From contig JAKQPY010000154.1 of NCBI GenBank assembly GCA_029564465.1, positions 10,477 through 74,476 of the forward strand: a stretch of 64,000 nt of DNA. Direction: 5' to 3'. Below are positions 30,578 to 56,172 of the stretch, in pieces (position 1 is the first letter of the stretch; each line of letters opens with the position of its first letter). The translations under genes and the position numbers were made by a program. The DNA comes from Bacteroidota bacterium (lineage in GTDB: Bacteria; Bacteroidota; Bacteroidia; Bacteroidales; ML635J-15). Below the pieces are notes generated by a model. That model was not told the DNA's origin and ran no database searches. It saw only the letters and a list, made by a program, of their open reading frames with translations.

Positions 30578-31666
30578 GTGAAAATTGTAGTTTCTGTAAG
30601 CAACGACATTGTTACCGACCAACGGGTACATCGGGTGTGCAACACACTGATTGACAATGACTTTAAAGTTGTACTTCTGGGTCGTAAAAAACAAAATTCT
30701 CCAACATTGGGCATATATTCATTCGAAACCAAGCGTTTCAGGTTACTGTTCGAAAAAGGTCCATTGTTTTACGCATGTCTGAATATGCGGCTATTTCTTT
30801 ATTTGCTTTTCGTCAAAGCCGATATTTTTTTGAGCAATGACCTCGATACATTGCCCGCCAATTATTATGCTGCAAAAATACGGTGCAAGAAACTGGTATA
30901 CGACAGCCATGAGTTATTTACCGAAGTACCCGAACTGCAAGGCCGGCCACGCGTAAAAGCATTCTGGGAACGCATCGAAAAACGAATACTTCCCAACATT
31001 AAATACAGCTATACAGTGTGCGAAAGTATTGCAGCTTACTACAATCAAAAATATGGAATTGAGATGCATGTGGTAAGAAACGTTCCTACTAAAAAAGAAA
31101 TTCAGATACCTTTTCATGAAAGAGGAAATGTATTTATTTATCAGGGAGTTTTAAATAAGGGTCGTGGACTCGAGATGCTGATTGAATCCATGGTTCATTT
31201 AAAAGAATACCAGTTGATAATTGCCGGCAGTGGTGATATCGAAGATAAGCTTAAACATATTGCTGCTGAACACAAAGCCGATAATGTATTGTTTGCGGGA
31301 AGAATCCCGCCTGAGGCACTTCATGCACTTACCTGTAAGGCAATTCTCGGATTTTCGCTCGAAGAAGATTTGGGACTGAACTACCGATTTGCTTTGCCCA
31401 ATAAAATTTTTGACTATATTCAGGCAGGTGTGCCGGTGATGGTAAGTAAATTGCCTGAAATGGAAAAGTTAGTTACACTATATACTGTAGGTCAATGTTC
31501 ATTAGCAACCACAGTACAACAGTTGTCCGGTGAAATACAAAAAATAATAGGCAATAAATCTTATAGAGAATTATATCATCCGAATTGCCTTAAGGCTGCT
31601 GAAACTCTGCATTGGGGCAACGAAAAACAGATACTCACATCATTGTTTGAATCCATCAAATCCTAA
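30578..31666 (+). CDS. Glycosyltransferase (GT-B fold, group 1/GT4-like)
   Basis: MKIVVSVSNDIVTDQRVHR start. C-terminal half has GRGLEMLIE, LIIAGSGD and P.KIFDYIQAGVPVMVS, typical of GT4 enzymes. Confidence 0.75.
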   Translation: MKIVVSVSNDIVTDQRVHRVCNTLIDNDFKVVLLGRKKQNSPTLGIYSFETKRFRLLFEKGPLFYACLNMRLFLYLLFVKADIFLSNDLDTLPANYYAAKIRCKKLVYDSHELFTEVPELQGRPRVKAFWERIEKRILPNIKYSYTVCESIAAYYNQKYGIEMHVVRNVPTKKEIQIPFHERGNVFIYQGVLNKGRGLEMLIESMVHLKEYQLIIAGSGDIEDKLKHIAAEHKADNVLFAGRIPPEALHALTCKAILGFSLEEDLGLNYRFALPNKIFDYIQAGVPVMVSKLPEMEKLVTLYTVGQCSLATTVQQLSGEIQKIIGNKSYRELYHPNCLKAAETLHWGNEKQILTSLFESIKS

Positions 31667-31674
31667 AAATTGTC

Positions 31675-33003
31675 ATGAGTATAACCGAAAAAGACATCAC
31701 TGTCAACAGTTTCTCGCTTACAATATGCGGAATGTTCCGATACGATAAAGCAGCTTTTTATTCACGCAATGATATTGAGAATTATTTTGTTCCATGGCAG
31801 CACCGCCTTAGCGAAAGTCAGCGTGAACCAACGAGAAAACATTTACAAAACAGTTACTACGATAGTTTCTTAAGTAACATGTATCCCGAAATTCTGCATG
31901 CTGAAATGTTTAACAGCGCAAGCCGTGCCAATGTTTTGAATCATTTCACCGACAAACAGCTCATCGAAAAACCCACAGATTATGAGGCTATCCATTGCGA
32001 ATTGCAAGACCGACTTTCCGATTTTTCGATGAAATTTTCATATATCGATGTCTATCTGTTTCCTGAACAAACAGGTGTATTCAGCATTAACATTGTTTTA
32101 GAGGGCAAACCTGACTTGGCACAAATAAGTAACTGCATGTATCTGATTCGTCAACCCTCGGTGCTTCTTTGCATTAATGGTGAACACAAACCATTATATA
32201 ATTTTATCGAAGATGAAATTATAAAACCAATCAACGGAGCCAGCGACTGGACTGCCTATAACCCCCAACTGAAGTTGTTTAGCTTAATAGACATTGCTAA
32301 CAATATTGATACCGGTGATTTGCTTGCAATGCTATATGACTTGGGCAATGTTGCGCGATTAGGAACAGCAGCTGGCAACAATGAATTTTCACCATCAAAA
32401 ACATATTACAACGACCTTATCGAAAACCATACCATTTCGGTTTATAATAACTGGGCCGCTTTGGCTTTGTACGACACATTCACACGTATAAGCATTAACT
32501 ATCCCGACACATACAGAGCATGGGAAAATGAATATTTTAACATATACGTGCATTGCCTGCATCTGAAGTTTTACATGTACTACACCAATTCACAATTGAG
32601 CGATATTATCAATGTTTCGAAGCGCACCAAGGCTATCCGGAACGAATTTATTGCATTTCTGAACAAATACCAACACATTCAAATTTCGTATAAGTTTCTG
32701 CCCGACAAAATTAAAGACCGTTTGTTTATTGCTCTTGACATTCCTTCGGAAACAGAACATCTTGAGCAAAAAGTACAGCGCATCAACGAGCTATCGCAAG
32801 AGGCAAAAATGGAATCGAGCAACTTAATCCTCTATATCATTGCTTTGCTGGGCATTGTGCAGTCAATTGTTGCCTTTTCCGACTGGTTTGTAAAACTGGG
32901 GATTTCAGATAAATTTGTCTATCCCAATGGAAGCCTTTTTTTCAGTGTATTACTGGTATCGTTAATAGGTGCGATTTTTTTAATTCGTAATAAGAAACGA
33001 TAA
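31675..33003 (+). CDS. Hypothetical membrane protein with CorA-like architecture (soluble N-domain, long helices, two C-terminal TM helices; no GMN motif)
   Basis: C-terminus NLILYIIALLGIVQSIVAFSDWF ... LFFSVLLVSLIGAIFLIRNKKR. 8-nt gap to the glycosyltransferase gene. The CorA resemblance is architectural only. Confidence 0.55.
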   Translation: MSITEKDITVNSFSLTICGMFRYDKAAFYSRNDIENYFVPWQHRLSESQREPTRKHLQNSYYDSFLSNMYPEILHAEMFNSASRANVLNHFTDKQLIEKPTDYEAIHCELQDRLSDFSMKFSYIDVYLFPEQTGVFSINIVLEGKPDLAQISNCMYLIRQPSVLLCINGEHKPLYNFIEDEIIKPINGASDWTAYNPQLKLFSLIDIANNIDTGDLLAMLYDLGNVARLGTAAGNNEFSPSKTYYNDLIENHTISVYNNWAALALYDTFTRISINYPDTYRAWENEYFNIYVHCLHLKFYMYYTNSQLSDIINVSKRTKAIRNEFIAFLNKYQHIQISYKFLPDKIKDRLFIALDIPSETEHLEQKVQRINELSQEAKMESSNLILYIIALLGIVQSIVAFSDWFVKLGISDKFVYPNGSLFFSVLLVSLIGAIFLIRNKKR

Positions 33004-33014
33004 TTAACCGCAAT

Positions 33015-33872
33015 ATGAAAACCAAAAAAATCATTTATTTCGGGCTGCTTGCTTTTTCGGTTGCAGCATTAGTTTCAAGCATACTTATTAACCCCAACCG
33101 TTTTGCTATTATTATTTTGCTGACAATTTTTTCTGGTATTTTATCAGCAACGGGATTAACACATATCTATGCTTCAACAAAAAAGTCTTTCAAAATATCG
33201 AGATTTCTATTATTCTCTGCACTGGCAATACTAATTGCACTGATAATTGTTTTTATTTTTTACGAAAACGATTTCATCATCTTTGTAGTTATTTTAAGTG
33301 CGCTATTATTAATCTTTTCTGCCTTATCAATGATTGTATATAAGCAAAAAACCGACTTATTTGTTCTGATTTCAATTTTGATCTGTTTGACCGGCTTTAT
33401 TTTTAAAATGTATCACTTTCCTGGAGCATCAATTTTTATGATTACCGGATTTGGGTTTGGGGCAATCCTGAACATGCAACTTATTCATTATAAGATTACT
33501 TCCTACGAAAGTCACATCAATGTAAAATTGAATTTTTTCAAGAATTTCATCTGCATCACACTGTTTATAAGCTATTTTGCCACAATGTTCCGTTTTCAGC
33601 ACTTCCCCTTTGGCGGCTTACTCGAACTAATCAGCCTGGTGACAATAATCATTACGATACTTTCCTTTGTCTTTCTGTTGCCCAGTTCAAATTTTATAGA
33701 GTGGACAAAACAGCACAAACTTCTGTTTTACAGAGGCTTACTGATCCCTGTCATTTTTTTCGCAAGCTTGCTATCACTTTCTTATGTATTTCCAGAAACC
33801 TTTCAGCAATTGTTTCAACTAAACTCAAAAAAAGAAGCATTTTTCATGACTCTATATGAAATTCCCGAATAA
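33015..33872 (+). CDS. Polytopic membrane protein of unknown function
   Basis: About 8 hydrophobic helices. Repeated FKMYHFPGAS / FRFQHFPFGG motif, similar to the helix-hairpin motif seen in several Bacteroidota membrane proteins. Confidence 0.6.
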   Translation: MKTKKIIYFGLLAFSVAALVSSILINPNRFAIIILLTIFSGILSATGLTHIYASTKKSFKISRFLLFSALAILIALIIVFIFYENDFIIFVVILSALLLIFSALSMIVYKQKTDLFVLISILICLTGFIFKMYHFPGASIFMITGFGFGAILNMQLIHYKITSYESHINVKLNFFKNFICITLFISYFATMFRFQHFPFGGLLELISLVTIIITILSFVFLLPSSNFIEWTKQHKLLFYRGLLIPVIFFASLLSLSYVFPETFQQLFQLNSKKEAFFMTLYEIPE

Positions 33873-33874
33873 TA

Positions 33875-36589
33875 TTATGGCATAAATATTTGCCCATCAA
33901 ATACAAGTTCCTTCAAATACGAAATATCAATCGGATACTGATATAATCTGTTCTCATTAATTGTCAGCAAGTGTTTCCCATTGGGTGAAAACTCCGGCTT
34001 TTGGCCATCGAATACAAACACAGGATATCCATTATTCCTGTCTAAAACACTGATGAGAACTGTCTCGTTAAGGCCTTCGACCTGTAGGGCAAATAATTTT
34101 CCATTGTCGGTCGCATCAATTGACGAATAAATTGTATCTCCTTCCAGCTCAGGAATAAACCAACTTGAAAAAATAGCGTTTTTATACCGCTTTATTGTGC
34201 CTTCAGCAACGCTATCAATGCTCATACCTGATAAAACAAAATCGCGATTTATCGTTGCAGGGTCGAAAGTCTTTAATGTTCCTGCGTTTCCATACCGGTT
34301 GATAATTATTGCTGATTTTGTTTTCGAAAATACTGCCCGGTAAACAGGCGACATCTGCGAACAGGCATATATACTTCTGTCATCGTTCAAATAGCCATGT
34401 TCTTCTCCGGTTAAGCGCCACATCCGAATTGTACTGTCAGCAGACGCAGTCAGAATATAATTCGATTCTTTGTTGAAAACAGCACTCCAAACGATGTCAG
34501 AATGACCCTTAAGAACGCTTCTCTTGTCGTATTTCTCAGTCTTTTCGTTGTATTTCCAAATCTGCGCTGTTGCATCTTTCGAAGCTGTTACCAACCATTT
34601 TGCATCTGGTGAAATGCAAACCGAAGTAACTGCGGCCGAATGGGATGACAGTTTTTGTAACATTTCCCCATTACGCTTATCATAAATCACCACACTGCTA
34701 TCGGCCGAAATACATGCAAGATGGTGTTGCGCTGGTGCAAAACTAAGCATATCATGGGTATTAATTAGCCCTGATTGGGTTTGCAGCGCAAATATTTTTT
34801 CACCATTAAGCGTAAAGAGAATTATCGAATCCTGGGAGCTTACACATGCAACATATTTGGCGTCATTAGACATTTTCAACGAGACAATACCTGCATGACA
34901 GCTGATTTGGGTTTTTACCTGACCATCTGTATTCCAGATAACAATGGTCGAATCGGCCAGATAACCATAAATATAATTTCCTTCTTCGGAATAATGCGCT
35001 TCACAAATTTTTGATTCGCAGGGTGTGAATGAGAAACTAAGTCTGTCATTTCCGGTATTTTTGAGAATTTCGTTTCGCCATCCATAAAAACTATTGATTA
35101 CAGCTTTTTGAGTAAATGCCGTGGGAAATTCTTCGTGTGCCTCGACTGCACTGCTAAATGCAAGTTGGTAATTACCATGGTTACCCAAGGCAAACAATGC
35201 TTTTTTCTGGGACTCTGTCTTTTTCACTTCGCGTCTAACGTAAATAGTAAGTAATGTAAAAACAAGGGCCAGCACGACTACCGAAAGAGCGGTAATACGG
35301 TTGAGCACTTTGCGGCGTTTAACAATATCACTTTTGCTGGCTTGAATAAATGCTGAGAGCTTATCATCAAAATGCAGGCTACTTTCGTAACGATCAAGGT
35401 ATTTCAGATCGGATACTCCGAGTAAAACGTTTCGTTTTTCGTAAATGAAATACGCATTCTCAACAAACTGCCTCACTTCGAACAATTCTTTTTCAGCAAT
35501 ACTAATATTTTCGAATATTTTCTCTGCCAGCGCATCGTGGCGCAATTCGTAACGCCCGTAGTTGTCGCGGTCGCGCAAAATACGCAGGTTTACAAAATGA
35601 TTCAACAGGGTTGTAAGTGTTTGCGATTCGATGGTTTTACCCATACTTCGGCAGAAATCAGCAATTTCTTCCTGTGTCGATTGTTTTTTGGTGCCTTTGC
35701 CCGATACCAACGACTTAAGCATCGTCATCGCCAAATCGCTGTTTTCAAAGCTTTTTACCTGCTCATCGAGAAAGTCGCCCAACAAGTCTTTTACGTTCCC
35801 GCAATTATCGACCAGAGCGTTAGTAAATGCTGGAACCTGTTTGTGTTCGCCATTCCCGGTGGCTTGTTTGTACAGCCGGTCGAGAAATACCTGCAAATAA
35901 GTAAGTTCTATTTCGCCACCACCAGAGGTCAGGCGGTTCAGCATGTTTTCTGAAAAACCTTCTTCCACTTCGATCCCCGCAATACGACATGGTCCTTCGA
36001 TTGCCTGACGCGCATTTTCGAAACCCATTTTTTCGATTCTCACTCGGTTACCCAGAATTTCGGGGATAATGCGTTCGAATTCAGTGATACCGGCCAAATA
36101 TTCTTCGCGGATTACAAACAGAAAACGGCATTGCAAATCGCTGTCAACCACAGCCTTCACCGATTGCACGAACTGCTGTTTCTCGGTTTTGCTGCCAAAA
36201 ATCATCAACTCTTCGAACTGGTCGTACACCAAATACACCGGTTTAAAATGGTCGAGATACAACGAGCGTATCATTTTGCTCATCCATTTGGGTTTATTCA
36301 GGTCGGCGCTAACTTCGGTGAGCGAAGCTTTCTGCAGCTCCATCAGCGTGGCTTCGTTTATATCGCGTCCACGACGGATATTCACCGGCAGCCAGTCGCT
36401 ATCGTTAAACTTCGACGCCAGTCCGCAATGTATCAGCGACGATTTTCCGGTTCCCGAAACACCGTAAACAAGCAATATTTTACTCTCAAACACCTTTTGA
36501 TAGAGTGCTTCTATTTCGCGGTCACGTCCGAAAAACACATTCCGGTCATCGCGCGTGTAAGAATCGAGAAATTTAAAGGGACTTTGCAT
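33875..36589 (-). CDS. STAND-type P-loop NTPase - single TM helix - WD40 beta-propeller protein (904 aa)
   Basis: N-terminus FFGRDREIEAL..LLVYGVSGTGKSSL (Walker A) and VYLVYDQFEE (Walker B). TM helix ITALSVVVLALVFTLLTIYV at about aa 430-450. WD-like repeats SKDATAQIWKY, SADSTIRMWRL, LADSTIVIWNT. Confidence 0.9.
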   Translation of the reverse strand: MQSPFKFLDSYTRDDRNVFFGRDREIEALYQKVFESKILLVYGVSGTGKSSLIHCGLASKFNDSDWLPVNIRRGRDINEATLMELQKASLTEVSADLNKPKWMSKMIRSLYLDHFKPVYLVYDQFEELMIFGSKTEKQQFVQSVKAVVDSDLQCRFLFVIREEYLAGITEFERIIPEILGNRVRIEKMGFENARQAIEGPCRIAGIEVEEGFSENMLNRLTSGGGEIELTYLQVFLDRLYKQATGNGEHKQVPAFTNALVDNCGNVKDLLGDFLDEQVKSFENSDLAMTMLKSLVSGKGTKKQSTQEEIADFCRSMGKTIESQTLTTLLNHFVNLRILRDRDNYGRYELRHDALAEKIFENISIAEKELFEVRQFVENAYFIYEKRNVLLGVSDLKYLDRYESSLHFDDKLSAFIQASKSDIVKRRKVLNRITALSVVVLALVFTLLTIYVRREVKKTESQKKALFALGNHGNYQLAFSSAVEAHEEFPTAFTQKAVINSFYGWRNEILKNTGNDRLSFSFTPCESKICEAHYSEEGNYIYGYLADSTIVIWNTDGQVKTQISCHAGIVSLKMSNDAKYVACVSSQDSIILFTLNGEKIFALQTQSGLINTHDMLSFAPAQHHLACISADSSVVIYDKRNGEMLQKLSSHSAAVTSVCISPDAKWLVTASKDATAQIWKYNEKTEKYDKRSVLKGHSDIVWSAVFNKESNYILTASADSTIRMWRLTGEEHGYLNDDRSIYACSQMSPVYRAVFSKTKSAIIINRYGNAGTLKTFDPATINRDFVLSGMSIDSVAEGTIKRYKNAIFSSWFIPELEGDTIYSSIDATDNGKLFALQVEGLNETVLISVLDRNNGYPVFVFDGQKPEFSPNGKHLLTINENRLYQYPIDISYLKELVFDGQIFMP

Positions 36590-36717
36590 AGGGTATTATT
36601 ATTTTTTCATGTATTGATTTAATATGTAAAATGGAAAATGTTCTCCACTAAGTAAAGCAACTTTCGTTGATATAGAGTCGGAAACATCATTCCATTTCTT
36701 TAAGAAATAATTTTCTT

Positions 36718-39700
36718 TTATTTCTTATCAGTTCGCAATAATTCTAATGTCGTTGCATAACCAATATGATAGATTCCTTTCTCTTGGAGGTTTTCAATGT
36801 CTTGGATAAATACCGATTGGAATGTACGTTTTTCATCATACATTTCATTATTATATTTTGCATACCACTTCATTGCCATAAAATATTTATTTTGCAGTAA
36901 ATATATTACTGGCTTTTTAGCGAGGGCAGCTTTATTTAAAGGATTATGCTTCAATATGAATTGGTTAACCTGAAATAAATACTTCACATTAACCATTTTT
37001 GTGATATTTTCATCCATGAATAAGTTTAGAATCATCACAAAAAAACTCATACTTTCATCAAATTCAGTTGAATTTTCAATTGCCTCAAGTAAGGAAACTA
37101 AAAGGTATTCTGGATGAATTTCTGAATCATAAAAAACTTCCAAGTTTTCATTGTATAGTGTTAATAGCTCGTACTTATCCCAAAAATTATTTGATTTTAT
37201 AATCTTCATGTGATAAAAACCCCATTCTATCGGATCTACCTCGACATCATATTTAATCAGTTCAATATCTGATATTAATTTCCGAAAAACAAAATGTAGT
37301 TTTTCGGGATTTTTTTTAATAAGTTCAGAGCTAACTAAGCTTGCTTTTATTAAATAGTCCGCCTTTGAAACACTGTCAATAGTTAAATCACAATTGCGTT
37401 TCAAATAAAAAAATAATTCATTCAATTCTAATTCAGATGCTGTAGTTATTGATTGTTGAAAATCAAAAACAATTTCGTATTGCATTTTATTACTCAAGCT
37501 TAAAACATCGGCGCAGTTTTCACTTAATGGGTATTTGTAATCTGACTTTAACGAGAATAGTAACACCTTATTGAAACCATAGAAACCTACTGATAGGAGT
37601 TTACCATTTTGTGACACATCAATATTGGCAAGAGAATTACGAAAAATCAAGCTGCATTTTTTTAGACCAACCTTATCATACATTTCCAAATTCATATTTT
37701 TAAACCCGCCAGCTGTAAAAATTGAAAAAACCGAGTTGATAGCAGCATCTGCAACTTCATTCTCATATCCGGGTATAATCAATTTTACGTTTAACAATGA
37801 ATCAAATACATATAAATTACTTCCTCCAAGGGAAGAATAGTAAAGTTTTTGTTTTTTGTCTTCTTTAATAAAAGTTTCAAATGGATAATAAATACTTCCT
37901 TTCCCTTGATATCTCTTAAGCTCGTTCCCAACACTATCGAGCAAAAGTATTACTCCTTTCATTGCATCAATAGCAATAATTTGATTGTTGTCTAGCAACT
38001 TAACGGCTTGAATAATGGTCCCAGGAATTTCGTCTTTTTCTACTTTTCGGATCAATTCACCACCTCGGTTGTAAATATAAATGCAACGTTTATTGTCGCA
38101 TACAGCAATTCGCTTGTTATCTCTCGACAAGTCGATATTAGTAATATATTGACATTCGGTTTTAATTGTCAGAATATTTTCTCCATTTAACCCCCACAAC
38201 CGCACTGTGCTATCTGAAGAAGATGTGAGCATAAATTTTCCATCGTAAGAAACCACAGCATCGTTGATACCTCGTTTGTGACCAATTAACAAAGTTTCTC
38301 TACCTGTTGTCAGATCAACAATTTTCGAAATGGAATCTCTGGAACATATAAACAAACTTTCATCATTATTTATAAATGACAAATGTGTTATCTGATTTCT
38401 ACCGCCGTCGCAATAATTATTACTAATAGCGTTCCCTGTGTAAATTGCGTCCGATTTGGCATTAGCAGGTACCGTGAATGATTGCAATAGTTGTTGTTCC
38501 ATATTCCAACGTTTCAAGCTGCCATCAAAAGAGGCAGAAAACAAATAGCTGCCAATAACTTCAACATCAAGCACTATGTGTTTATGGCCAAGAAATGAAG
38601 ATAAAAATTCGCTCTGACCATAAGATGCCAAATAGCTGTAAATATTGTTATCCTCTGTGTAAATCATTAAATCGTTTATTCTCCATAACTTAGCGTATTC
38701 AGAGGAATTTGTTTGAATCTTGTCAATAAAGTTGCCCTCACTATCATATTCAAGAATAGCATTTGACGTTCTAAAAAGTAAAGTTTTACCTATTTGAACA
38801 AAACCTGATACATTATCATTGAATTCAACAGTGTTTATACAGTTGCCATTGGTGTCCCAGAATTTGGCGGTTTTATCGTCAGAGCATGTAATAAAAACAT
38901 TTTCATTGTCAAGAAATTTCAAATCTGCAATATTCTCATTGTGCGCATCTTTATCAACCAAAAGCGTCCAATTTCTATCGTAGATTTGAAAACTGTGTCT
39001 AGCAACACTGATCACAATTTTTTGCCTGTCTGGCGATACAGCAATACATCTTTTCAGCCCAATATAATCTGCTGTGCCTGTTCTATCTGGAGCCAATACT
39101 GCAATTAAATTCATCGAACTATCCCATACTTTAGCCGTACAATCAAACGATGCTGTAATTATTGTATTATCATCATAAAAACAAATTTCTGTAATTACAC
39201 GATTATGAATTGTATCGTACTTAGCTACTAGGTTTCCTGAAGTATCTACCACATGCATTGAACCATCGACCATGCCTAAAAACAAAACATCTTTTTGCGG
39301 ATGTTTTTTCACACAAGATATCCCTGTATTAACCCCGTATATTGTTTTATACAAATTATTAGAATAGTAAATCGAATAAATATTTTCCAGGATTTCTTTA
39401 TTAGCAGTATCAATGCTGTAGGCATATTCTGCCAATCGCAATGCAACTGTAGGGTTTTCGTTAACAACTCCCTTAGCTAATGAATTATAATAATTTGCCA
39501 ACGCTTTTTTCTCATTCTCTTCTGCCTTGCTCCTCTCCCGCATTGCCCACCATGTAAATCCACTCAGCACAATGAGCAGCACAATGGCTGCTGAAGACAG
39601 TATCCAGATTCTCCGCCTGCGGGCTTTGGTAAGTTCACTTTGGCTGCGTTTTATGAATGTTTCGTGTTCGCGCGATAAATACAGCTTGTCGCTATATGGC

Positions 39701-40899
39701 GCCAGATAATTCAGGTCACTTTTGCTTAACAGTACACCGCGCCGCAAATACAATTCATACGCATTCTCAACAAACTGCTGCACTTCAAACAATTCCTTTT
39801 CGGCAATGCTGATGTTTTCATAGATTTTTTCGGCCAGCGCATCGTGGCGCAACTCGTAGCGGTTGTAATTGTCCTTGTCGCGCAATATACGCAGATTTAC
39901 AAACTGGTTTAGCAGACTGCGCAGGATCTCGGCATCCACCGGTTTACCCATGCTGTGGCAAAAATCAGATATCTCCGCCTCTCCCACCTGCTTCTTCGTT
40001 CCTTTTACCGATACCATTGCCTTGAGAACCGTCATCGCCATTTCGCTGTCGGCAAACGATTTTATCTGCTCATCAAGAAAAGTACCGAGCAGGTCTTTTA
40101 CGTTGCCGCAGTTGTCAATCAGTGCATTGGTAAAATGTATGGTATTCTCTGCTTCTTGGTTTTCGGCACTTGCCATTTTATACAGCCTGTCGAGAAACAC
40201 CTGCAGGTAGGTCAGTTCGATATCGCCGCTACCGGGCGAAAGGCGGCTGAGCATATTTTCGGCAAAGCCTTCTTCCACACCTATTCGGGCCACGCGGCAC
40301 GGACCTTCGATAGCCTGACGTGCATTTTCGAAGCCCATTTTTTCGATGCGCACCCGGTTTTCGAGAATTTCAGGCACAATACGCTCAAACTCGGTGATGC
40401 CGGCCAGATATTCTTCGCGGATTACAAAAATAAAACGGCATTGCAAATCGCTGTCAACTACCGCTTTTACCGATTGAACAAACTGCTGTTTCTCGGTTTT
40501 ACTGCCAAAAATCATCAACTCCTCAAACTGGTCAAAAATCAAATACACAGGCTTGAAGTGGTCGAGGTACAGTGAGCGTATAGCCTTGAGCATCCATTTT
40601 GGTTTGCTCAAATCGGGATGCAGTTCTGTGATAGAGGCTTTTGTAAGTTCACCAGCAAGCGCTTCGTTTATGTCACGCCCACGGCGGATGTTCAGCGGAA
40701 GCCAGTCGCTGTCGTTAAACTTCGACGCCAATCCGCAATGAATTAGCGACGATTTTCCGGTTCCCGAAACACCGTAAACGAGCAATATTTTACTCTCAAA
40801 CACCTTTTGATACAGTGCTTCTATTTCGCGGTCACGTCCAAAAAACACATTCCGGTCGTCGCGCGTGTAAGAATCGAGAAATTTAAAGGGAGATTGCAT
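36718..40899 (-). CDS. STAND-type P-loop NTPase - single TM helix - WD40 repeats - helical C-terminal domain (1393 aa); paralog of 33875..36589
   Basis: The first ~68 aa are identical to the 904-aa neighbour except one V/L substitution at residue 68, and the proteins stay highly similar to about aa 400. TM helix IWILSSAAIVLLIVLSGFTWWAM. WD-like repeats SFDCTAKVWDS, SDDKTAKFWDT, SFDGSLKRWNM, SSDSTVRLWGL. The last ~300 aa are helical with no recognisable domain. Confidence 0.9.
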   Translation of the reverse strand: MQSPFKFLDSYTRDDRNVFFGRDREIEALYQKVFESKILLVYGVSGTGKSSLIHCGLASKFNDSDWLPLNIRRGRDINEALAGELTKASITELHPDLSKPKWMLKAIRSLYLDHFKPVYLIFDQFEELMIFGSKTEKQQFVQSVKAVVDSDLQCRFIFVIREEYLAGITEFERIVPEILENRVRIEKMGFENARQAIEGPCRVARIGVEEGFAENMLSRLSPGSGDIELTYLQVFLDRLYKMASAENQEAENTIHFTNALIDNCGNVKDLLGTFLDEQIKSFADSEMAMTVLKAMVSVKGTKKQVGEAEISDFCHSMGKPVDAEILRSLLNQFVNLRILRDKDNYNRYELRHDALAEKIYENISIAEKELFEVQQFVENAYELYLRRGVLLSKSDLNYLAPYSDKLYLSREHETFIKRSQSELTKARRRRIWILSSAAIVLLIVLSGFTWWAMRERSKAEENEKKALANYYNSLAKGVVNENPTVALRLAEYAYSIDTANKEILENIYSIYYSNNLYKTIYGVNTGISCVKKHPQKDVLFLGMVDGSMHVVDTSGNLVAKYDTIHNRVITEICFYDDNTIITASFDCTAKVWDSSMNLIAVLAPDRTGTADYIGLKRCIAVSPDRQKIVISVARHSFQIYDRNWTLLVDKDAHNENIADLKFLDNENVFITCSDDKTAKFWDTNGNCINTVEFNDNVSGFVQIGKTLLFRTSNAILEYDSEGNFIDKIQTNSSEYAKLWRINDLMIYTEDNNIYSYLASYGQSEFLSSFLGHKHIVLDVEVIGSYLFSASFDGSLKRWNMEQQLLQSFTVPANAKSDAIYTGNAISNNYCDGGRNQITHLSFINNDESLFICSRDSISKIVDLTTGRETLLIGHKRGINDAVVSYDGKFMLTSSSDSTVRLWGLNGENILTIKTECQYITNIDLSRDNKRIAVCDNKRCIYIYNRGGELIRKVEKDEIPGTIIQAVKLLDNNQIIAIDAMKGVILLLDSVGNELKRYQGKGSIYYPFETFIKEDKKQKLYYSSLGGSNLYVFDSLLNVKLIIPGYENEVADAAINSVFSIFTAGGFKNMNLEMYDKVGLKKCSLIFRNSLANIDVSQNGKLLSVGFYGFNKVLLFSLKSDYKYPLSENCADVLSLSNKMQYEIVFDFQQSITTASELELNELFFYLKRNCDLTIDSVSKADYLIKASLVSSELIKKNPEKLHFVFRKLISDIELIKYDVEVDPIEWGFYHMKIIKSNNFWDKYELLTLYNENLEVFYDSEIHPEYLLVSLLEAIENSTEFDESMSFFVMILNLFMDENITKMVNVKYLFQVNQFILKHNPLNKAALAKKPVIYLLQNKYFMAMKWYAKYNNEMYDEKRTFQSVFIQDIENLQEKGIYHIGYATTLELLRTDKK

Positions 40900-40920
40900 A
40901 GCTGGTTATTTTATTTCAAA

Positions 40921-41184
40921 TTATTGATTGTTGATTTCAAATTTAAAATTGGGTTCATTTAGTAGGACATTAGTTGTTTTAAAAGCATTTGATAATTAAG
41001 TTATTACATTCTATTTCGTTTGATATTAAATCAAAAATCATAAATTTGAAATCCAAAATTTTCAAAGTGTTTATTGTTGATTTCAAATTAAAATTGGGTT
41101 CATTTAGTGGGACATTAGTTGTTTTTAAAGCATTTGATAATTAAGGTATTACATTCTATTTCGTTTCATATTAAATCAAAAAAA
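40921..41184. repeat. Two direct copies of a ~115-nt non-coding unit (40921..41037 and 41071..41184)
   Basis: Both copies align by eye with only a handful of substitutions and small indels (ttattg(att)gttgatttcaaat(t)taaaattgggttcatttagt(a/g)ggacattag...cgttt(g/c)atattaaatcaaaaa). Confidence 0.85.
40938..40945 (-). promoter_or_regulatory. Candidate -7 promoter box (TAAATTTG on the minus strand) for the 1393-aa STAND gene
   Basis: Fits TAnnTTTG, ~40 nt upstream of ATG 40899 and inside repeat copy 1. Copy 2 carries a 1-nt deletion in the motif. Confidence 0.3.
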
Positions 41185-41197
41185 ATAAAATCTCCAA

Positions 41198-41569
41198 TCA
41201 CTTAGTTTTATTCATATTCTTCTTCAGTGTAATCAACGTCTTACTAACAATACTTACAAGTTCCTCACTTTCTTTTTTTAAAACCAACAGATTTGCATCA
41301 TCGCAATTCATAATTTTCGATTGCTGCATAAAACCAATCCAAAAATCAACTTCTCTGATTTCTTTTAAAACAATTTGCAACTTGTGCGCAAAGTCTCTTT
41401 TGCTTTCGGCACCAATGGCTTCCTGATAATTTGCCCCACAGGACGTTGCAGAACGAAAAAGCTGCATATAAACGTGTCGCCCGCTAAAAGATTTAACCAT
41501 CAACTTTTCGAGCCGATACACAGAAACCGCAAAAATTATAAACCGATCTGATAATTCCTTACTAGTCAT
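41198..41569 (-). CDS. Four-helix-bundle protein (23S rRNA intervening-sequence protein / Avd-like family)
   Basis: 123 aa. Pattern ...RSATS(C/I)GANYQEA......DF..KL.I..KE..E..FW is typical of this family. Confidence 0.75.
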   Translation of the reverse strand: MTSKELSDRFIIFAVSVYRLEKLMVKSFSGRHVYMQLFRSATSCGANYQEAIGAESKRDFAHKLQIVLKEIREVDFWIGFMQQSKIMNCDDANLLVLKKESEELVSIVSKTLITLKKNMNKTK

Positions 41570-41664
41570 CTATTATTATCTCCAATTAAAAAAATTAAAA
41601 ATCATCAATCTTAAATTCTAAATCAAAAATCTTAAATCAAAAATTTAAAATCTTAAATCTCCCA

Positions 41665-42696
41665 TCATCCGCAAACCACTTTCACCAAATCTTTATATTC
41701 CTGTAACAAGTTTGCATAATTGCTTAGCGAACGAAGATCGCATTTTTCAGTTACTTCGGTTCCAACATACATCAGGTGGTCGCTTCGGAATTTGGTAAAC
41801 ATAAAAATGTCCTTTTTAATATCGAACTTTTCCTTGTCATTGATAACTTCGCAATTTGTGTCAATAATCAGTGGTGACAGATTAAGGTATTCGTCAATTG
41901 ATTTAATGCTTTTCATAAGCAGCACCGATTGCGTATCGGTGAACTTGGTTTCATCGATTTCCTGAATTTTAAAACCTGAGTCGGAACTGTTTAAAATGTC
42001 AACAGAGTGTTGAAATACCGGATCCTGATTTTTGGGCTTCACCACTTTAATTTCGCGTACCGATACCAATTTGTACTTCACAAGGAAACTGAGCTTTTCG
42101 AGAATGAATGCCAGTTTATCTTCGTACTCCACACAACGTTTCTCGATATCTTCCTGAGTTAAATTTATCTGATAATGTCCAATTTCGTTGCGTTCAGGAA
42201 CCCAAAAATCAAGGGCGTTCAAGAATTTAGAGTCGAATTCCACTGTTTCGGGCAGAAACCAATCACGCTCTTGCTCTGAATAAAACTTCGTTAGCATGCG
42301 AATAATCCATGCATAATTACCCATAGACAAAACCGAAAATCGCGATTCAAAATCCTTTTTAAAGCTATCGGGAACCATTATCAATCCATTGGCAACATCT
42401 CGCCAAAGCTGGCTGATCATAATAAAACTCATGAATTGCATGCTACGCTCTATGGTTTTAAAAATCTGATCGAGGCGCATACGGTCGAGCTGGCGCATTG
42501 AGCCTGAAAATAACCTTCGAAGCTCGACCCCAACAGGCCAGGGGAAATTTCTGATAATTAAATCACCCAATAATCGCGGATCAATCGCATCATCCTCATC
42601 ATCCTCGTCAACGACAACAAATTTTGCCAGTGCCGGGCGGTTTTTTACCATTGCATCAAAAACACGCTTAATTAAATCTTCATTCAGTTTTTTCAT
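41665..42696 (-). CDS. Hypothetical cytoplasmic protein (343 aa), no recognisable domain
   Basis: Long ORF with coding-like composition, an acidic tract VVVDEDDEDDAIDP, and no TM helix or signal peptide. Confidence 0.7.
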   Translation of the reverse strand: MKKLNEDLIKRVFDAMVKNRPALAKFVVVDEDDEDDAIDPRLLGDLIIRNFPWPVGVELRRLFSGSMRQLDRMRLDQIFKTIERSMQFMSFIMISQLWRDVANGLIMVPDSFKKDFESRFSVLSMGNYAWIIRMLTKFYSEQERDWFLPETVEFDSKFLNALDFWVPERNEIGHYQINLTQEDIEKRCVEYEDKLAFILEKLSFLVKYKLVSVREIKVVKPKNQDPVFQHSVDILNSSDSGFKIQEIDETKFTDTQSVLLMKSIKSIDEYLNLSPLIIDTNCEVINDKEKFDIKKDIFMFTKFRSDHLMYVGTEVTEKCDLRSLSNYANLLQEYKDLVKVVCG

Positions 42697-43976: not shown

Positions 43977-45047
43977 TTAAATCGTTTTTTCAATATCGCT
44001 CCGACCCGAGATATACGCATCCCATTTCTCCAATAACGCGGCCATATCGGTGGGAATTTCGGAGTCGAACATTAATTTCTTTTTTGTAACCGGATGTACA
44101 AAGCCCAGTGTTTTTGCATGCAAAGCCTGCCGTGGACAAATTTGAAAGCAGTTTTCAACAAATTGTTTGTATTTGCTGAATAAGGCACCTTTTACAATAC
44201 TATTGCCTCCATATTCCGAGTCGTTAAAAAGTGGAAATCCCAGATTACTGAAGTGAACACGAATCTGATGAGTCCTGCCTGTTTCGAGTCGGCACTCAAC
44301 ATAGGTGCAATAGGTGTAACGCTGCAAAACACGGTAATGGGTAACCGCATGTTTACCCGATGAACCATCCTGAAAAACCGTCATAACTTTTCGGTTCGAG
44401 GGATGCCTTCCGACATTACCCGTAATGGTTCCCTCATCATCGGGTAAATTGCCCCAAACCAGTGCATGATAGGTTCGTGAAGCGGTATGTTCAAAAAACT
44501 GTTTGCCCAAGCCATTCAACGTCTTCTCGTTTTTTCCGACCACCAGCAATCCACTGGTATCCTTATCGATGCGGTGCACCAACCCGGAGCGGATATCGTT
44601 TTCGGAAAACAATTCGTTTCCCTGCAGGTGAAACGCCAATGCATTTACTAAAGTCCCGGTGAAATGTCCCACCGCCGGATGCACGACCATTCCAGCCGGC
44701 TTGTTGACTACCAATAAATCGTTGTCTTCGTAAACAATCTGAAGTGGGATATTTTCGGGTATAAGTTCAAATTCAATTTTAGGAAAACTTAGCAATATGG
44801 TAATTACTTCGCCGGGTTTAATTTTATAATTCGATTTAACGGTTTTGCTGTTTACAAAGACGTTTCCGGCTTCGATAGCTGCCTGAATTCTGGTTCTTGA
44901 AACATTGGCTATTTTACCGCCCAGAAATTTATCGATACGAAGTACGGCTTGACCTGCATCGACTACAAAACGAAAATGTTCGAACAAATCTTCCTGGGCC
45001 GACTGGTTTTCGGTCTCGGCGTTGTTAATGTAATCCTGCTGTAACAT
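43977..45047 (-). CDS. rluD: RluA/RluD-family 23S rRNA pseudouridine synthase with an N-terminal S4 domain
   Basis: Catalytic motif HRIDKDTSGLLVV; S4-like RIDKFL....VSRTRIQ.AI..G.V.VN. Confidence 0.85.
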   Translation of the reverse strand: MLQQDYINNAETENQSAQEDLFEHFRFVVDAGQAVLRIDKFLGGKIANVSRTRIQAAIEAGNVFVNSKTVKSNYKIKPGEVITILLSFPKIEFELIPENIPLQIVYEDNDLLVVNKPAGMVVHPAVGHFTGTLVNALAFHLQGNELFSENDIRSGLVHRIDKDTSGLLVVGKNEKTLNGLGKQFFEHTASRTYHALVWGNLPDDEGTITGNVGRHPSNRKVMTVFQDGSSGKHAVTHYRVLQRYTYCTYVECRLETGRTHQIRVHFSNLGFPLFNDSEYGGNSIVKGALFSKYKQFVENCFQICPRQALHAKTLGFVHPVTKKKLMFDSEIPTDMAALLEKWDAYISGRSDIEKTI

Positions 45048-46897
45048 TAGTGAGAAACAACCAAGCGCAAGGTAGTCGGACCTGTGTCACGCATCACATG
45101 AACAATATACAATCCATTGTTCCATTGAGATACGTCGATGGTTTCGTAAGCCTTACCCGAAAACTGCAACCTTCCTGAGCAATCGTAAATGAAGCACTCT
45201 CCATCTAAAGTTCCGTATTCGGATGCAATATTCACCTGATTTGAAGCAGGATTTGGGTATAATACAAATCTGGATTCAGGAACAACAGGAATACTCATTG
45301 GGTTGGGATCTTTCCCAAAAACAGGCCGTACCATAATAGCACCCTGTAGCGACGACTGAGTCCAGTTGCCATCGGTATTATACAATAGTTTTGATGAAGC
45401 ATCCCTGTTTTTGTCAAAGCCCACATTAAGCATATCGTCGGTTGTTTTTACCCAACCAATGAAAAAAGCGCCTGAAACAAAAACGGGAGTATCGAGTGCG
45501 TAATATCGGTACTCGTTGAGACTATCAGTATAAATTGGTCTTACCCCAATCTGTTCAACCAGGGTATCACCCGGTACGCCTCCATCGTTTTCCCACACCA
45601 TCAGGTAGAAATAATGAATATTTGCATCGTTAAGTACATGATTGAAGAAAATATTCACACCACGCAATGTGTCGGCTTGTAAAGGTTCAAACATTAACGC
45701 AACTGCCGAACCGGCTGTTCCCTGACCGGCAATCCCATACCCCTGCTCGGCAGAACCATCGTCGTAGGCATAATAATTATAAAAACACTGATTGTAGATG
45801 ATTGTATCGTTCCAACGATAAGGACGGCGTGCTGCCGTAGTATCAGTTTTAATAAAACCCTTTAACTCAAAACATGCTGAATCAATTGTGTTGGAATTAA
45901 ATACATAATTTACCTGTTTCCCATAACTCAAAGTGCTACCTGGCAAAATATTCTCACTGTCATCAAGGCTCGAAAAACCGGTGCCGGTCCCCCACAAATC
46001 GCGTATGGTTAATTGCCGGTTAATGTTCTGGCCGGTGGTACCATTGTTTTTGTATACATATACCAGTGAATCGATGGTATTGGCTGCCGCCACAGGTTTA
46101 AAATGCTCCCAGGGAACACTTTCGTAAGTGTCGATCATACTGGTGAAATCCGAAATAAAAGCCACATCCTGCGTAATCGTATCATTCATATTTCGGGCAG
46201 TATCCAGCCTGACATAATCAATGTTCCAGATGTCAAAATTACTGTTGAACGAAGGCTCGTAGTTTGAGCCGATACTGGCATAATTTTTAAAGCGAAAACG
46301 AAATCCTTTTTTCAGAAAAGCAGGGTCTGTAACCGGGACTAAAACCAACTGGAAAGTATCCATAGCAACGCCACCATCGGTATTCCAAACCGAAACCCAG
46401 GTAGTATCAGGCGAAGAAAATTCCAATACCAACGAGTCGCCCACATCGGGTTTTTCACCTGTTCCACCACATTGATAGTAGAAACTCAGGTAAACAGAGT
46501 CTCCAGGACTGTATTGCAGGTTAATTGGTTTTGAGGTTAGATATTCGGATACAAGGCTGGTAGTAAACGACAAATTTGTGTAAACAGCACCCGTGCTATC
46601 AAGAATATCAAGACTGGCGACGCCAATCGAAATCGGGTCGATGGCATAGCCATTATTGATGAAGGCTGAATGTCCGTCCCATATTGCCTGATTGGCAAAA
46701 ACATAGGAATTCGAAAAGTCATCAAAAAAAGGCAATTCTAAGGTATCGGCATTCTTCACCGATTTATAATCGTATTCTTTAAAGTACTTCTTGCTGTAAT
46801 CGCGAATAACCGATGGAGCAATGTCAATAAGCGTTTCCTGAGCCCAAAGACTTAGCCCGGGCAACAGAAAAAGTATTAAGAAGGTACATTTCTTCAT
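45047..46897 (-). CDS. T9SS-secreted protein of unknown function
   Basis: Signal peptide MKKCTFLILFLLPGLSLWAQ. C-terminus LYPNPASNQVNI...GLYIVHVMRDTGPTTLRLVVSH is a type A CTD. Its stop overlaps the rluD start (TAATG). Confidence 0.8.
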   Translation of the reverse strand: MKKCTFLILFLLPGLSLWAQETLIDIAPSVIRDYSKKYFKEYDYKSVKNADTLELPFFDDFSNSYVFANQAIWDGHSAFINNGYAIDPISIGVASLDILDSTGAVYTNLSFTTSLVSEYLTSKPINLQYSPGDSVYLSFYYQCGGTGEKPDVGDSLVLEFSSPDTTWVSVWNTDGGVAMDTFQLVLVPVTDPAFLKKGFRFRFKNYASIGSNYEPSFNSNFDIWNIDYVRLDTARNMNDTITQDVAFISDFTSMIDTYESVPWEHFKPVAAANTIDSLVYVYKNNGTTGQNINRQLTIRDLWGTGTGFSSLDDSENILPGSTLSYGKQVNYVFNSNTIDSACFELKGFIKTDTTAARRPYRWNDTIIYNQCFYNYYAYDDGSAEQGYGIAGQGTAGSAVALMFEPLQADTLRGVNIFFNHVLNDANIHYFYLMVWENDGGVPGDTLVEQIGVRPIYTDSLNEYRYYALDTPVFVSGAFFIGWVKTTDDMLNVGFDKNRDASSKLLYNTDGNWTQSSLQGAIMVRPVFGKDPNPMSIPVVPESRFVLYPNPASNQVNIASEYGTLDGECFIYDCSGRLQFSGKAYETIDVSQWNNGLYIVHVMRDTGPTTLRLVVSH

Positions 46898-50766: not shown

Positions 50767-51996
50767 ATGATCACCGCAAGTACTGCAATTATTCTCGATA
50801 AGAGGTTCAAAAACAAAAACGGTAAATACTCCGTTAAGCTCAGAATTACAAATAACAGAGTTCAAAAGCACTATTCAACCGGTTACCACCTATCCGAAGA
50901 AGAGTGGATGGCTTCTCAGCAGGATAACCCCCGCAGGGAAAACAAAGAACATAAACTGGTATTCTCCCAAATCGAAGCCAAAGCCCTGGGCGTTATCAAA
51001 ACCCTTGATGCTTTTTCTTTCGAGCTATTCGAAAAAAAGTTCTTTCAAAACCCCGAGTCACGCAAAGATTTATTAGTGTTGATGCAACAGTACATCGATA
51101 AGCTAAAATCCGAAAACCGCCTTACCACTGCCGAAAGTTTCCGCAGTGCCTTGCGTTCATTTGTGGCCTTTTCGAAAACCCTGAAATCCGGCAAAGTCAT
51201 TATCAACCAGGTAACCCCCCAATGGCTCCAAAAATATGAAACCTTCATGATTGATAAGGGTTCCTCCATTACTACCGTTGGAATATACCTGCGAAACCTC
51301 CGTGCAGTTTTCAACCTTGCCATCGAAGAAGGAATCATCGACAGCAGCTTCTACCCTTTCGGTAAACGTAAATATCAGATACCTGCCGGTCAGAACCTAA
51401 AAAAAGCCCTTACACTTGCCGATATTCAAAAAATCATCAAATACAAGCCGGAATCGAAAGCCGAGGGAAAAGCTCGCGACCTCTGGATATTCAGTTACCT
51501 GTGCAATGGGGCCAACATCAAAGATATTGCCCTATTGCAGTACAAAAACATCAACGGCTCTTCTTTAACCTTTATAAGGGCCAAAACAGCCCGTTCAACA
51601 AGAGGCCAGATGAAACCCATTAAAGTAATGTTATTGCCCGAAATCACCGCTATAATCGAAAAATGGGGCACTAATTCCAATAACCCCGATGACTATGTGT
51701 TCGGTATTATTTCTCAACCTGATAATCCGGCTGAAAGGCTCGCTAAAATTCGTCAGGCTACGAAAACAATCAACAAATACATTGGCCGTATTGGTTCCGA
51801 ACTTCAATTCGATGTAAAACTAACAACCTATTATGCCCGCCATTCATTTGCTACCGTCCTGAAGCGTTCCGGTGCCCCCATCGAGTTTATCAGCGAAAGC
51901 CTCGGACATAAGGACCTTAAAACTACCGAAAACTACCTCGATAGTTTCGAAGATGATGCAAAGCTCAATTTTCAGAAAAAACTACTGGGTTTGTAA
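50767..51996 (+). CDS. Tyrosine site-specific recombinase (phage integrase family, Bacteroidota type with an N-terminal arm-binding domain)
   Basis: C-terminal catalytic segment YYARHSFATVLKRSGAPIEFISESLGHKDLKTTENYL (R, HxxR, Y). Confidence 0.9.
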   Translation: MITASTAIILDKRFKNKNGKYSVKLRITNNRVQKHYSTGYHLSEEEWMASQQDNPRRENKEHKLVFSQIEAKALGVIKTLDAFSFELFEKKFFQNPESRKDLLVLMQQYIDKLKSENRLTTAESFRSALRSFVAFSKTLKSGKVIINQVTPQWLQKYETFMIDKGSSITTVGIYLRNLRAVFNLAIEEGIIDSSFYPFGKRKYQIPAGQNLKKALTLADIQKIIKYKPESKAEGKARDLWIFSYLCNGANIKDIALLQYKNINGSSLTFIRAKTARSTRGQMKPIKVMLLPEITAIIEKWGTNSNNPDDYVFGIISQPDNPAERLAKIRQATKTINKYIGRIGSELQFDVKLTTYYARHSFATVLKRSGAPIEFISESLGHKDLKTTENYLDSFEDDAKLNFQKKLLGL

Positions 51997-52014
51997 ATTG
52001 TCTATTTCTAAAAT

Positions 52015-53136: not shown

Positions 53137-53301
53137 TTTAATCAAAAAAACGGTATTTTGACTTAATAATACCTCTTTAAAATACCACTTTCTATTTTTA
53201 TTCAACTGATTTTCTGTTAGTTAACCCCAGCACCTAAATACCGTTTTTTCTCCCTGTTTTCTTTTCTTCTGAACTTTGTCAAGTCTTTGAAAATCAAAGA
53301 T

Positions 53302-53319: not shown

Positions 53320-53347
53320 CATTTTGTAAAAGTTAATAATTAATACA

Positions 53348-53641: not shown

Positions 53642-53643
53642 CC

Positions 53644-53922: not shown

Positions 53923-53925
53923 ACT

Positions 53926-56163: not shown

Positions 56164-56172
56164 CATGGGATT

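Follow-up and report, generated by a model that had tools for sequence, protein, structure and literature searches.

The 64,000-nt stretch of DNA analysed here (positions 10,477 to 74,476 of contig JAKQPY010000154.1, Bacteroidales assembly GCA_029564465.1; hereafter the window) carries two adjacent genes, A and B, whose products combine an nSTAND1-family NTPase, a single predicted membrane-spanning helix and a C-terminal WD40 sensor. We consider it reasonably probable that A and B are paralogous single-pass nSTAND1 receptors and act as the variable sensors in an operon-like system with the conserved partner protein X343 as its constant component, and that this system carries out a conflict-type surveillance of the periplasm. 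In the following, A, B, X343, M285, C442 and 4HB denote genes of the window and their products, and L001-L096 denote related loci.

Domain architecture of the two paralogs

Gene A (33875..36589, minus strand; 904 aa, short type) and gene B (36718..40899, minus strand; 1393 aa, long type) are separated by 128 nt, and the architecture nSTAND1-TM-WD40 (TM, transmembrane helix) was assigned to both from their open reading frames (ORFs), translations and Pfam matches. An earlier note on this DNA, made from the letters alone, had described the same two ORFs and had left the STAND clade of their NTPases to profile searches, which place both in nSTAND1 (PF20703): A scores 145.9 bits (E 1e-42) over aa 4-356 (nt 35522-36580, minus strand) and B scores 144.0 bits (E 1.2e-41) over aa 4-357 (nt 39829-40890, minus strand), far above the cutoff of 27.1 bits and with profile positions 1-342 of 379 covered. 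No significant NACHT match was found for either protein in Pfam, and a search of PDB sequences with the NTPase module and with the C-terminal domain of B gave nothing useful. The Walker A (GVSGTGKSS, aa 43-51) and Walker B (VYDQFEE, aa 121-127, including DQFEE) motifs agree with the STAND superfamily patterns GxxxxGK[ST] and hhhhD..E and are invariant in the short-type alignment, and the FFGRDRE motif begins at residue 19, as had been reported. Since the nSTAND1 profile begins at residue 4, there is no N-terminal extension on A or B, in agreement with the earlier statement that neither has a recognisable N-terminal effector.

The two proteins are 56% identical over 692 residues (BLASTP), and this similarity is very unevenly distributed: as far as about aa 400 each 50-aa window shows 66-100% identity, and after that at most 26%, which is the collapse described in the earlier note. 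Residues 1-68 are identical in A and B, although the single V/L substitution that had been assigned to residue 68 actually sits at residue 69, and the first 109 nt of the two genes differ at 5 positions, as counted before, all of them synonymous. The sensor halves had been called unrelated; they indeed show no alignment beyond the repeat level, but both are WD40 propellers, if divergent ones, with a Pfam WD40 match in each (E of about 1e-24). A has a single propeller, modelled with about seven blades, at aa 528-886 (nt 33932-35008, minus strand; Pfam WD40 and AlphaFold2 (AF2) model), and the WD40 region of B (minus strand; E 3.8e-24) extends over approximately aa 518-1100. The additional length of B had been attributed to some 300 helical residues. 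A C-terminal domain of about 290 aa without a WD40 match is present (36721..37602, minus strand), showing weak conservation among the C-termini of 20 long-type homologs and holding a sub-cassette that is replaced between strains, but a second propeller's worth of WD40 repeats also contributes to the difference.

Predicted membrane topology

When mean Kyte-Doolittle (KD) hydropathy was scanned in 19-residue windows, A and B each displayed a single high window at the same position (next best at most 1.44), as the earlier note had observed. The predicted membrane-spanning segments are ITALSVVVLALVFTLLTIY in A (aa 432-450; 35240..35296, minus strand; KD 2.47), flanked by KRRKVLNR upstream and RREVKK downstream, and IWILSSAAIVLLIVLSGFT in B (aa 431-449; 39553..39609, minus strand; KD 2.29), preceded by KARRRR; charged residues are absent from both. 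A single segment above KD 1.8, always at about aa 424-491, was detected in 118 of the 120 best homologs, and exactly one such segment is present in 41 of 43 complete nSTAND1 ORFs from independent loci, the layout of NTPase, helix and propeller recurring across Bacteroidota. It is the hydrophobicity of the segment (19-residue KD 2.3-3.0) that is conserved among homologs, not its sequence. In addition, the 15 residues before the helix contain on average 7.1 lysines and arginines versus 3.8 in the 15 residues after it (120 homologs), the N-terminal flank being the richer one in 118 of 120 homologs and the poorer one in none. One span, a positive-inside bias and the lack of an N-terminal signal peptide (the NTPase is itself the N-terminus) are the features of a single-pass N-in/C-out protein.

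Domain context points in the same direction. GldM (PorM) is a periplasmic protein that is N-terminally anchored, and in sister nSTAND1-TM proteins GldM domains follow the helix, namely GldM_1st (E 3e-20 and 2e-17) and GldM_3rd plus GldM_4th (E 3e-17 and 4e-18). Together with the charge bias, this position of the GldM domains suggests that the sensor half is probably periplasmic. Hydrophobicity, charge bias, GldM context and the need of the NTPase for cytoplasmic nucleotide thus support an N-in/C-out orientation for A and B with periplasmic propellers, so that the proposal of the earlier note (a genuine membrane helix, a cytoplasmic ATPase and a periplasmic propeller) gains support as a predicted topology. 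The genes for GldM-bearing sisters, in which GldM replaces WD40, lie at 7786-9990 in L006, 11143-13335 in L045 and 16041-18137 in L034; three membrane segments precede the GldM domains in L006 and L045. These sisters hint that the STAND family is connected with the type IX secretion system (T9SS) apparatus.

An AF2 model of A, for which 26 short-type homologs were used (pLDDT 78, pTM 0.50), consists of an NTPase/helical/winged-helix module (aa 1-400), an uninterrupted 61-residue helix (aa 409-469) containing the hydrophobic stretch, two further helices and then about 29 strands at aa 528-886, which would form a propeller of approximately seven blades, a count that the earlier note had left to AlphaFold. 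Because the long helix joins two independently folded modules, the hydrophobic segment appears in the model as an exposed connector and not as part of a buried core, the possibility about which that note had been concerned. The best full-length Foldseek match of A is the Apaf-1 apoptosome (5juy, 3sfz; E 1.5e-22), and its C-terminal half matches seven-bladed WD40 proteins with TM-scores of 0.6-0.69. As modelled, A therefore follows the STAND layout seen in Apaf-1, with NTPase, helical and winged-helix modules and a C-terminal repeat sensor.

It might be argued that the hydrophobic helix is an oligomerisation element or a peripheral anchor, and that the whole protein is a cytoplasmic Avs- or Apaf-1-like sensor of intracellular ligands. 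To our knowledge, all characterised STAND/NLR sensors are intracellular; moreover, the C-terminal flank of the helix also bears lysines and arginines (six in A), and AF2 cannot establish membrane insertion. Such an explanation would nevertheless have to account for a 19-residue window of this hydropathy that is maintained while its sequence changes, for the consistency of the positive-inside asymmetry, for the modelled position of the helix as a connector outside the domain core, for periplasmic GldM domains behind the helix in sisters, and for co-inheritance with polytopic membrane proteins (see M285 below), and we regard it as very improbable.

Linkage of X343 with nSTAND1 genes

The STAND family to which A and B belong is large, with 1462 proteins at E <1e-10 among 8000 candidates examined, and its sources, where named, are Bacteroidales or Bacteroidota metagenome-assembled genomes. 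The proteins fall into length classes of about 900-1000, 1100-1250 and 1330-1460 aa. Of the 120 top homologs, 24 belong to the short type (850-1000 aa), and 24 selected short-type homologs align to A at 39-43% identity with a query coverage of 98-100%. In distant genomes, a protein of about 345 aa without a Pfam domain is encoded upstream of the STAND genes (immediately upstream in L005), and it is homologous to X343, a 343-aa soluble protein without known family which the locus survey and homolog search identify as the conserved upstream partner of A and B (41665..42696, minus strand). Across these loci X343 is 58-68% identical, while the STAND proteins there are only 36-42% identical to A.

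To survey this association, a metagenome scan was seeded on X343 and 80 loci were annotated, 54 of which have at least 1.5 kb of downstream sequence. An nSTAND1 gene lies downstream of X343 on the same strand in 52 of these 54 loci, mostly at a distance of less than 200 nt and in five pairs with an overlap. Among the loci offering at least 9 kb downstream, one STAND gene was found in ten, two in four, three in two and none in one, and L006 contains four. The question raised by the earlier note, whether homologs are single-copy genes in a conserved housekeeping neighbourhood, can therefore be answered: they occur in one to three copies per locus in the survey and four in L006, with variation in the wider neighbourhood. 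In L039, L041, L048, L084, L017 and L035, the STAND genes are preceded by two X343 genes in tandem, and fragmented nSTAND1 ORFs were observed in some loci, such as L012 and L089.

Homologs of X343 number 1114 (up to 90% clustering) and are all labelled hypothetical, and X343 is highly conserved (65-72% identity). An exhaustive search yielded 630 representatives (50% clustering), and in many of these the X343 domain is the C-terminal part of a longer protein. Among the 69 long representatives, 54 carry a caspase-fold protease (49 CHAT, 3 Peptidase_C14 and 2 Peptidase_C25) and ten carry an AraC helix-turn-helix (HTH) domain, accompanied in three of them by an adenylate/guanylate cyclase. These fusions stand in the same place as X343 itself: AraC-cyclase-X343 is directly followed by an nSTAND1 gene in L089, CHAT-X343 in L090 and L091 (4-nt overlap), and AraC-X343 in L092, where the nSTAND1 protein is 47% identical to A and has its hydrophobic helix at aa 441; overlaps in these fused-X343 loci (L089-L092) amount to 1-4 nt. 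As fused versions directly precede nSTAND1 genes, the X343 domain behaves like a constant coupling module to interchangeable outputs, and its fusion to CHAT or other caspase-like proteases, AraC HTH domains or cyclases in relatives makes X343 a likely candidate for the adaptor or output component of the system, as judged from sequence. The earlier expectation that output is supplied in trans has in this way obtained a concrete candidate, whose contact with the STAND proteins would be the step that we infer. One of the 69 long representatives (P0274, a metagenomic fragment, 717 aa) is an in-frame fusion of X343 and nSTAND1 with a 12-residue linker, which could be genuine or, the contig being short, could stem from the loss of a stop codon.

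X343 has no match in Pfam (E up to 10), PADLOC, PHROGs, PDB sequences, PDB folds or BFVD. Its invariant motif RNEIGH (aa 169-174) brought an HEPN RNase to mind, an assignment that we rejected in view of the lack of a Pfam or PDB-profile match and of Foldseek results in which the best E value is 0.087 and none of the matches is HEPN. A viral or anti-defence protein was rejected as well, there being no BFVD or PHROG match.

Mosaic alleles and gene conversion

Three sets of related Bacteroidales loci, L001, L002 (on the same contig as L003) and L004, allow A and B to be compared with their closest relatives. The order RRM, X343, 4HB and two STAND genes is common to the window, L001 and L002, and L001 then continues with C442, GT4, MurB and rubrerythrin, as does the window. 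L004, which is 96.8% identical in nucleotide sequence to window positions 30826-35634, covers only the end that runs from A to GT4. B combines an NTPase resembling that of L001 gene 1 (88-100% over aa 150-350) with a sensor essentially identical to that of L001 gene 2, and A combines the NTPase of L001 gene 2 (96-100%) with a third sensor type, common to L002 gene 2; the first genes of L001 and L002 have yet another sensor in common. Three sensor cassettes are thus found in different combinations among related strains.

The partner of highest identity switches at gene nt ~1100-1125, within a conserved RYELRHD...FVENAY block just ahead of the membrane helix. In A this block ends the NTPase module (aa ~345-385, RYELRHDALAEKI...EKELFEV.QFVENAY; 35435..35557, minus strand), and its equivalent in B lies at ~39745-39867. 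B and L001 gene 2 show no differences over 1.4 kb (nt ~1130-2520), with flanking DNA 79-94% identical, and the same two alleles are only about 50% identical over the 450 nt (gene nt 3510-3960) that encode part of the C-terminal domain. Within the subfamily, mean pairwise identity is 66.5% for the NTPase versus 34.9% for the propeller. The sensor halves are hence variable and shuffled between close strains as mosaic alleles, contrary to what would be expected of conserved orthologs, the alternative that had been considered in the earlier note. Synonymous divergence (dS) between A and B is 0.235 over codons 2-68 and saturated beyond, and that between the L002 paralogs is 0-0.04 over codons 69-370. 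This contrast implies that the near-identity of the 5' regions represents a gene-conversion tract on top of a strong constraint at the protein level.

The same comparison bears on whether A is a recent duplicate in decay, that is, a truncated and possibly non-functional copy of a B-like gene whose 5' identity merely reflects recency. A is shorter than B by 489 aa, its positional counterpart in L001 encodes 1388 aa, and fragmented ORFs do occur in other loci, as mentioned above. However, saturation of dS beyond codon 68 indicates that the A/B duplication is old, the short type constitutes a conserved subfamily (24 of the 120 top homologs; 39-43% identity), the model of A shows a complete propeller with some seven blades, A has a dedicated convergent partner in M285, and L004 carries the same allele, uninterrupted over 4.8 kb (the 5' 955 nt of A lying beyond the contig end). 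Decay is, in our estimation, the least credible of the explanations considered.

Proposed mechanism and biological role

A mechanism that would connect these observations is as follows. The NTPase module (aa 1-400) would be cytoplasmic, the helix at ~431-450 would cross the inner membrane, and the periplasmic part would comprise one propeller in A, and about two plus the C-terminal domain in B. Binding of a periplasmic ligand to the propeller may cluster receptors and free the NTPase, which would then oligomerise in a nucleotide-dependent manner at the cytoplasmic side, and the resulting NTPase platform would engage X343. In sister clades, X343 would then bring in a caspase-like protease (CHAT), a transcription factor (AraC) or a nucleotide cyclase; in the lineage of the window, it might act alone or via a further partner. 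Several sensors of different specificity may use one X343, gene conversion keeping their NTPase 5' regions alike, and sensor cassettes would be swapped between strains at the conserved block ahead of the membrane helix. Convergence of several sensors on one adaptor would explain the pressure for similar NTPase modules. The short paralog A may additionally pair with M285.

We consider it most likely that the system monitors the periplasm for proteins that are foreign or abnormal, a role only weakly favoured over ordinary envelope signalling, because caspase-fold fusions predominate among X343 relatives, sensor cassettes are polymorphic, alleles have recently been exchanged and copy number varies. 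A number of observations weigh against this interpretation. The topology of A and B is based on hydrophobicity, charge bias and domain context. With a membrane between propeller and NTPase, Apaf-1-style autoinhibition would be impossible and the switch mechanism must differ. The X343 of the window has no recognisable enzymatic or DNA-binding domain, and its model (pLDDT 69) is helical over aa 1-207, falls below 50 in the beta region and has no structural neighbour. A, B and X343 match no PADLOC or NCBIfam family, the window neighbours are housekeeping genes in a locus that is syntenic in relatives, no defence-island context was found at the locus, phage collections gave a single remote match to the NTPase module (23% identity), and plasmid collections gave no match to X343. 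Furthermore, the associations with AraC, cyclase and TPR-SpoIIE genes fit ordinary signalling equally well.

Indeed, a receptor of the same architecture could have a housekeeping function in envelope signalling, its propellers monitoring a normal periplasmic state (for instance that of the T9SS/gliding apparatus, the integrity of the envelope or a nutrient) and the STAND-X343 module feeding into transcription or partner-switching phosphatase cascades. The GldM domains of sister paralogs and a GldL_N-like member of the M285 family would fit such a function, as would the fusion of X343 to AraC HTH and cyclase domains, the high conservation of X343 (65-72% identity), a TPR-SpoIIE phosphatase of the PP2C type downstream in 11 of 17 loci, and a chromosomal, syntenic, housekeeping context lacking defence-database matches. 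On the other hand, 54 of the 69 fused X343 relatives carry caspase-fold proteases, a typical output of cell death or conflict, polymorphic and recently exchanged cassettes in one to four copies are unusual for a housekeeping sensor, and the window itself contains no TPR-SpoIIE gene. We therefore regard envelope signalling as a rather unlikely, though serious, explanation and retain conflict-type surveillance by A and B as the preferred one.

Comparison with known systems

The nSTAND1 clade was defined by Kaur, Iyer, Burroughs and Aravind in 2021 (PMC8195603), and its published contexts comprise N-terminal effector-associated or Death-like adaptor domains with neighbouring effectors, or EACC1 systems (PMC8195603). 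A and B resemble members of this clade in their family profile match and in C-terminal repeats of the superstructure-forming kind that are presumed to be the sensor, but they have no N-terminal domain, a membrane helix is placed between NTPase and sensor, and the partner is the X343 domain. No component could be assigned to the effector-associated domain (EAD) or Death-like adaptors (Kaur et al. 2020/2021), as A and B lack an N-terminal domain and a Pfam search up to E 10 gave no match for X343. X343 is soluble, whereas the component of EACC1 systems has a single TM helix. In open-access full text, the papers of Kaur et al. included, we found no published description of this architecture or of X343.

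According to the model match, Apaf-1 and Dark have the same succession of NTPase, helical domains and WD40 propellers, and the caspase-fold CHAT domain on X343 relatives echoes the logic of Apaf-1 and caspase-9. However, A and B have no CARD, the protease, where present, is located on a separate X343-joined protein, and the propeller is predicted to be in the other compartment. With Avs1-5, the newer clades and bNACHT proteins, A and B have in common a STAND switch, a sensor of C-terminal repeats, the diversification of this sensor and an arrangement in paralogous arrays; they differ by the lack of a fused N-terminal effector (nuclease, TIR, protease, etc.) and by the predicted periplasmic position of the sensor, whereas the phage proteins recognised by Avs are bound in the cytoplasm. 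PADLOC returned for A and B only marginal P-loop or propeller matches (HEAT-ARM_XIII, PDC-S53 and mad8) and no Avs or bNACHT model. In the passages matched in the main text of a 2026 STAND survey (PMC13581612), WD40 sensors are mentioned, and neither a membrane-spanning class nor the X343 domain is described.

The predicted passage from a periplasmic propeller through a single- or few-pass membrane anchor to a cytoplasmic switch has parallels outside the STAND superfamily. Hybrid two-component sensors of Bacteroidetes consist of a periplasmic beta-propeller, a TM helix, a kinase and an AraC HTH domain, and PknD, a eukaryotic-like Ser/Thr kinase, consists of a cytoplasmic kinase, a TM helix and an extracellular propeller. 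AraC output in X343 relatives adds to this likeness, whereas the transmitter of A and B is a STAND NTPase without homology to theirs and the output resides on a separate protein. The sole precedent that we found for a periplasmic STAND sensor is among the NACHT/nSTAND1 C-lectin targets of diversity-generating retroelements (DGRs) in multicellular bacteria, where the NACHT and C-type lectin domains of one target are predicted to be periplasmic (PMC10907252). These targets are also tandemly duplicated STAND sensors, but they carry a C-type lectin diversified by a retroelement, while A and B carry WD40 sensors diversified by cassette recombination and gene conversion.

Neighbouring genes and repeats

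M285 (33015..33872, plus strand), a 285-aa polytopic membrane protein with about seven hydrophobic segments, is encoded convergently with A and was recognised by locus comparison. Two of its homologs, L8_304 (43% identity) and L7_301 (26%), are likewise placed convergently beside STAND genes of 906 and 939 aa, and in many survey loci short-type STAND genes are followed by a convergent M285 homolog, as is usual for this type. L001 has neither the short-type cassette nor M285. The gene pattern thus suggests that M285 is co-inherited, and may pair, with the short paralog. Membrane complexes of the GldL/GldM type (5:2) pair a GldM-like single-TM protein with a GldL-like TM hairpin protein that bears conserved charged TM residues. 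Sisters carry GldM domains and the M285 homolog of L007 matches GldL_N (30.4 bits versus a cutoff of 24; E 4.6e-7), the match of M285 in the window being not significant (E 2.4) and the membrane helices of A and B having no charged residue.

C442 (31675..33003, plus strand), whose 442 aa end in two TM helices and give a weak CorA-like PADLOC match (E 2.6e-7), is packed tightly between the GT4 glycosyltransferase gene and M285. It belongs to a family of only 29 members and occurs near the system in L001, L008, L053 and L078. We considered C442 as a missing membrane effector and rejected this, since its family is small and also lies beside TPR-SpoIIE genes without nSTAND1 in the fetched DNA, whose contigs end about 400 nt downstream; both points suggest that it is not a dedicated component but possibly a loosely associated accessory one. 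In L095 and L096, a TPR-SpoIIE gene is followed by a C442 homolog. The TPR-SpoIIE phosphatase (about 613 aa) is listed for L020-L025, L028, L032, L038, L040, L047, L051, L075 and L006; its gene lies downstream of the STAND/M285 cluster, in the same orientation, in 11 of the 17 loci whose sequence extends far enough.

Between X343 and B lies a four-helix-bundle gene (4HB; 41198..41569, minus strand), identified by a domain match (23S_rRNA_IVP / TIGR02436). Elsewhere the slot between X343 and STAND genes is empty or holds other unrelated genes (L010, L012, L023, L053, L062 and L076), which in L012, L053 and L062 are a shared P-loop protein of about 390 aa; some slot genes look transposase-like by eye. 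Because of these other insertions, 4HB is most likely an incidental one. An Avd-like DGR accessory function was rejected, no Pfam-recognisable reverse transcriptase being present among the genes scanned around the locus. A tandem repeat of 145 nt (40914..41189; 1.9 copies, 92% match) occupies most of the intergenic region between 4HB and B and may be a duplicated promoter or leader; Rfam gave no matches on the whole window, this repeat included. The interval from the X343 stop codon to the start of 4HB contains an A-rich array (41590-41660) of 7-nt and 21-nt tandem units, about three copies of AAATTAAAAATCAAAAATCTT.

Farther away, a probable integrated mobile element of low GC content (0.33-0.39) spans 50767-61323 and contains a tyrosine integrase (50767-51996), a BT4734-like/DUF3987 gene (53926-56163), an SNF2 helicase (56509-59451) and a 600-aa ORF. 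A giant ORF of 2782 aa is located at 20368-28716, its L001 counterpart having SprB, PKD and CHU_C matches, and T9SS cargo proteins with Por_Secre_tail or CHU_C sorting domains are encoded at 1483-5745, 18465-19775 and 45047-46897. The giant ORF and the cargo proteins indicate that the genome is that of a gliding or T9SS-bearing Bacteroidota member.

Implications

The nSTAND1 family and the STAND superfamily, to which A and B belong according to their sequences, are already known. New here are the X343 partner and its effector fusions, the paralogs with GldM domains, the paired M285 and the recombination and gene-conversion anatomy of the locus, in which sensor cassettes are shuffled behind a common signalling module. 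Such a locus is a compact example of how a receptor repertoire can be diversified and parallels the NLR clusters of plants. Our results also provide a first functional handle on the conserved and unannotated X343 family by tying it to caspase-like, transcriptional and cyclic-nucleotide outputs.

STAND/NLR proteins are textbook intracellular sensors of immunity and cell death. We tentatively suggest that Bacteroidota hold widespread, previously undescribed transmembrane receptors resembling NLRs or the apoptosome, in which a periplasmic propeller or GldM module would act via a STAND switch on X343 and thereby on caspase-like proteases, AraC regulators or cyclases. If so, these bacteria would signal across the membrane by STAND oligomerisation instead of phosphotransfer, and interchangeable sensor cassettes might protect the T9SS/gliding apparatus, or the periplasm, from phage, toxins or competitors. 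A sensor outside the cytoplasm would turn NOD-type oligomerisation into a transmembrane signalling device, combining the logic of a surface receptor with that of an NLR.

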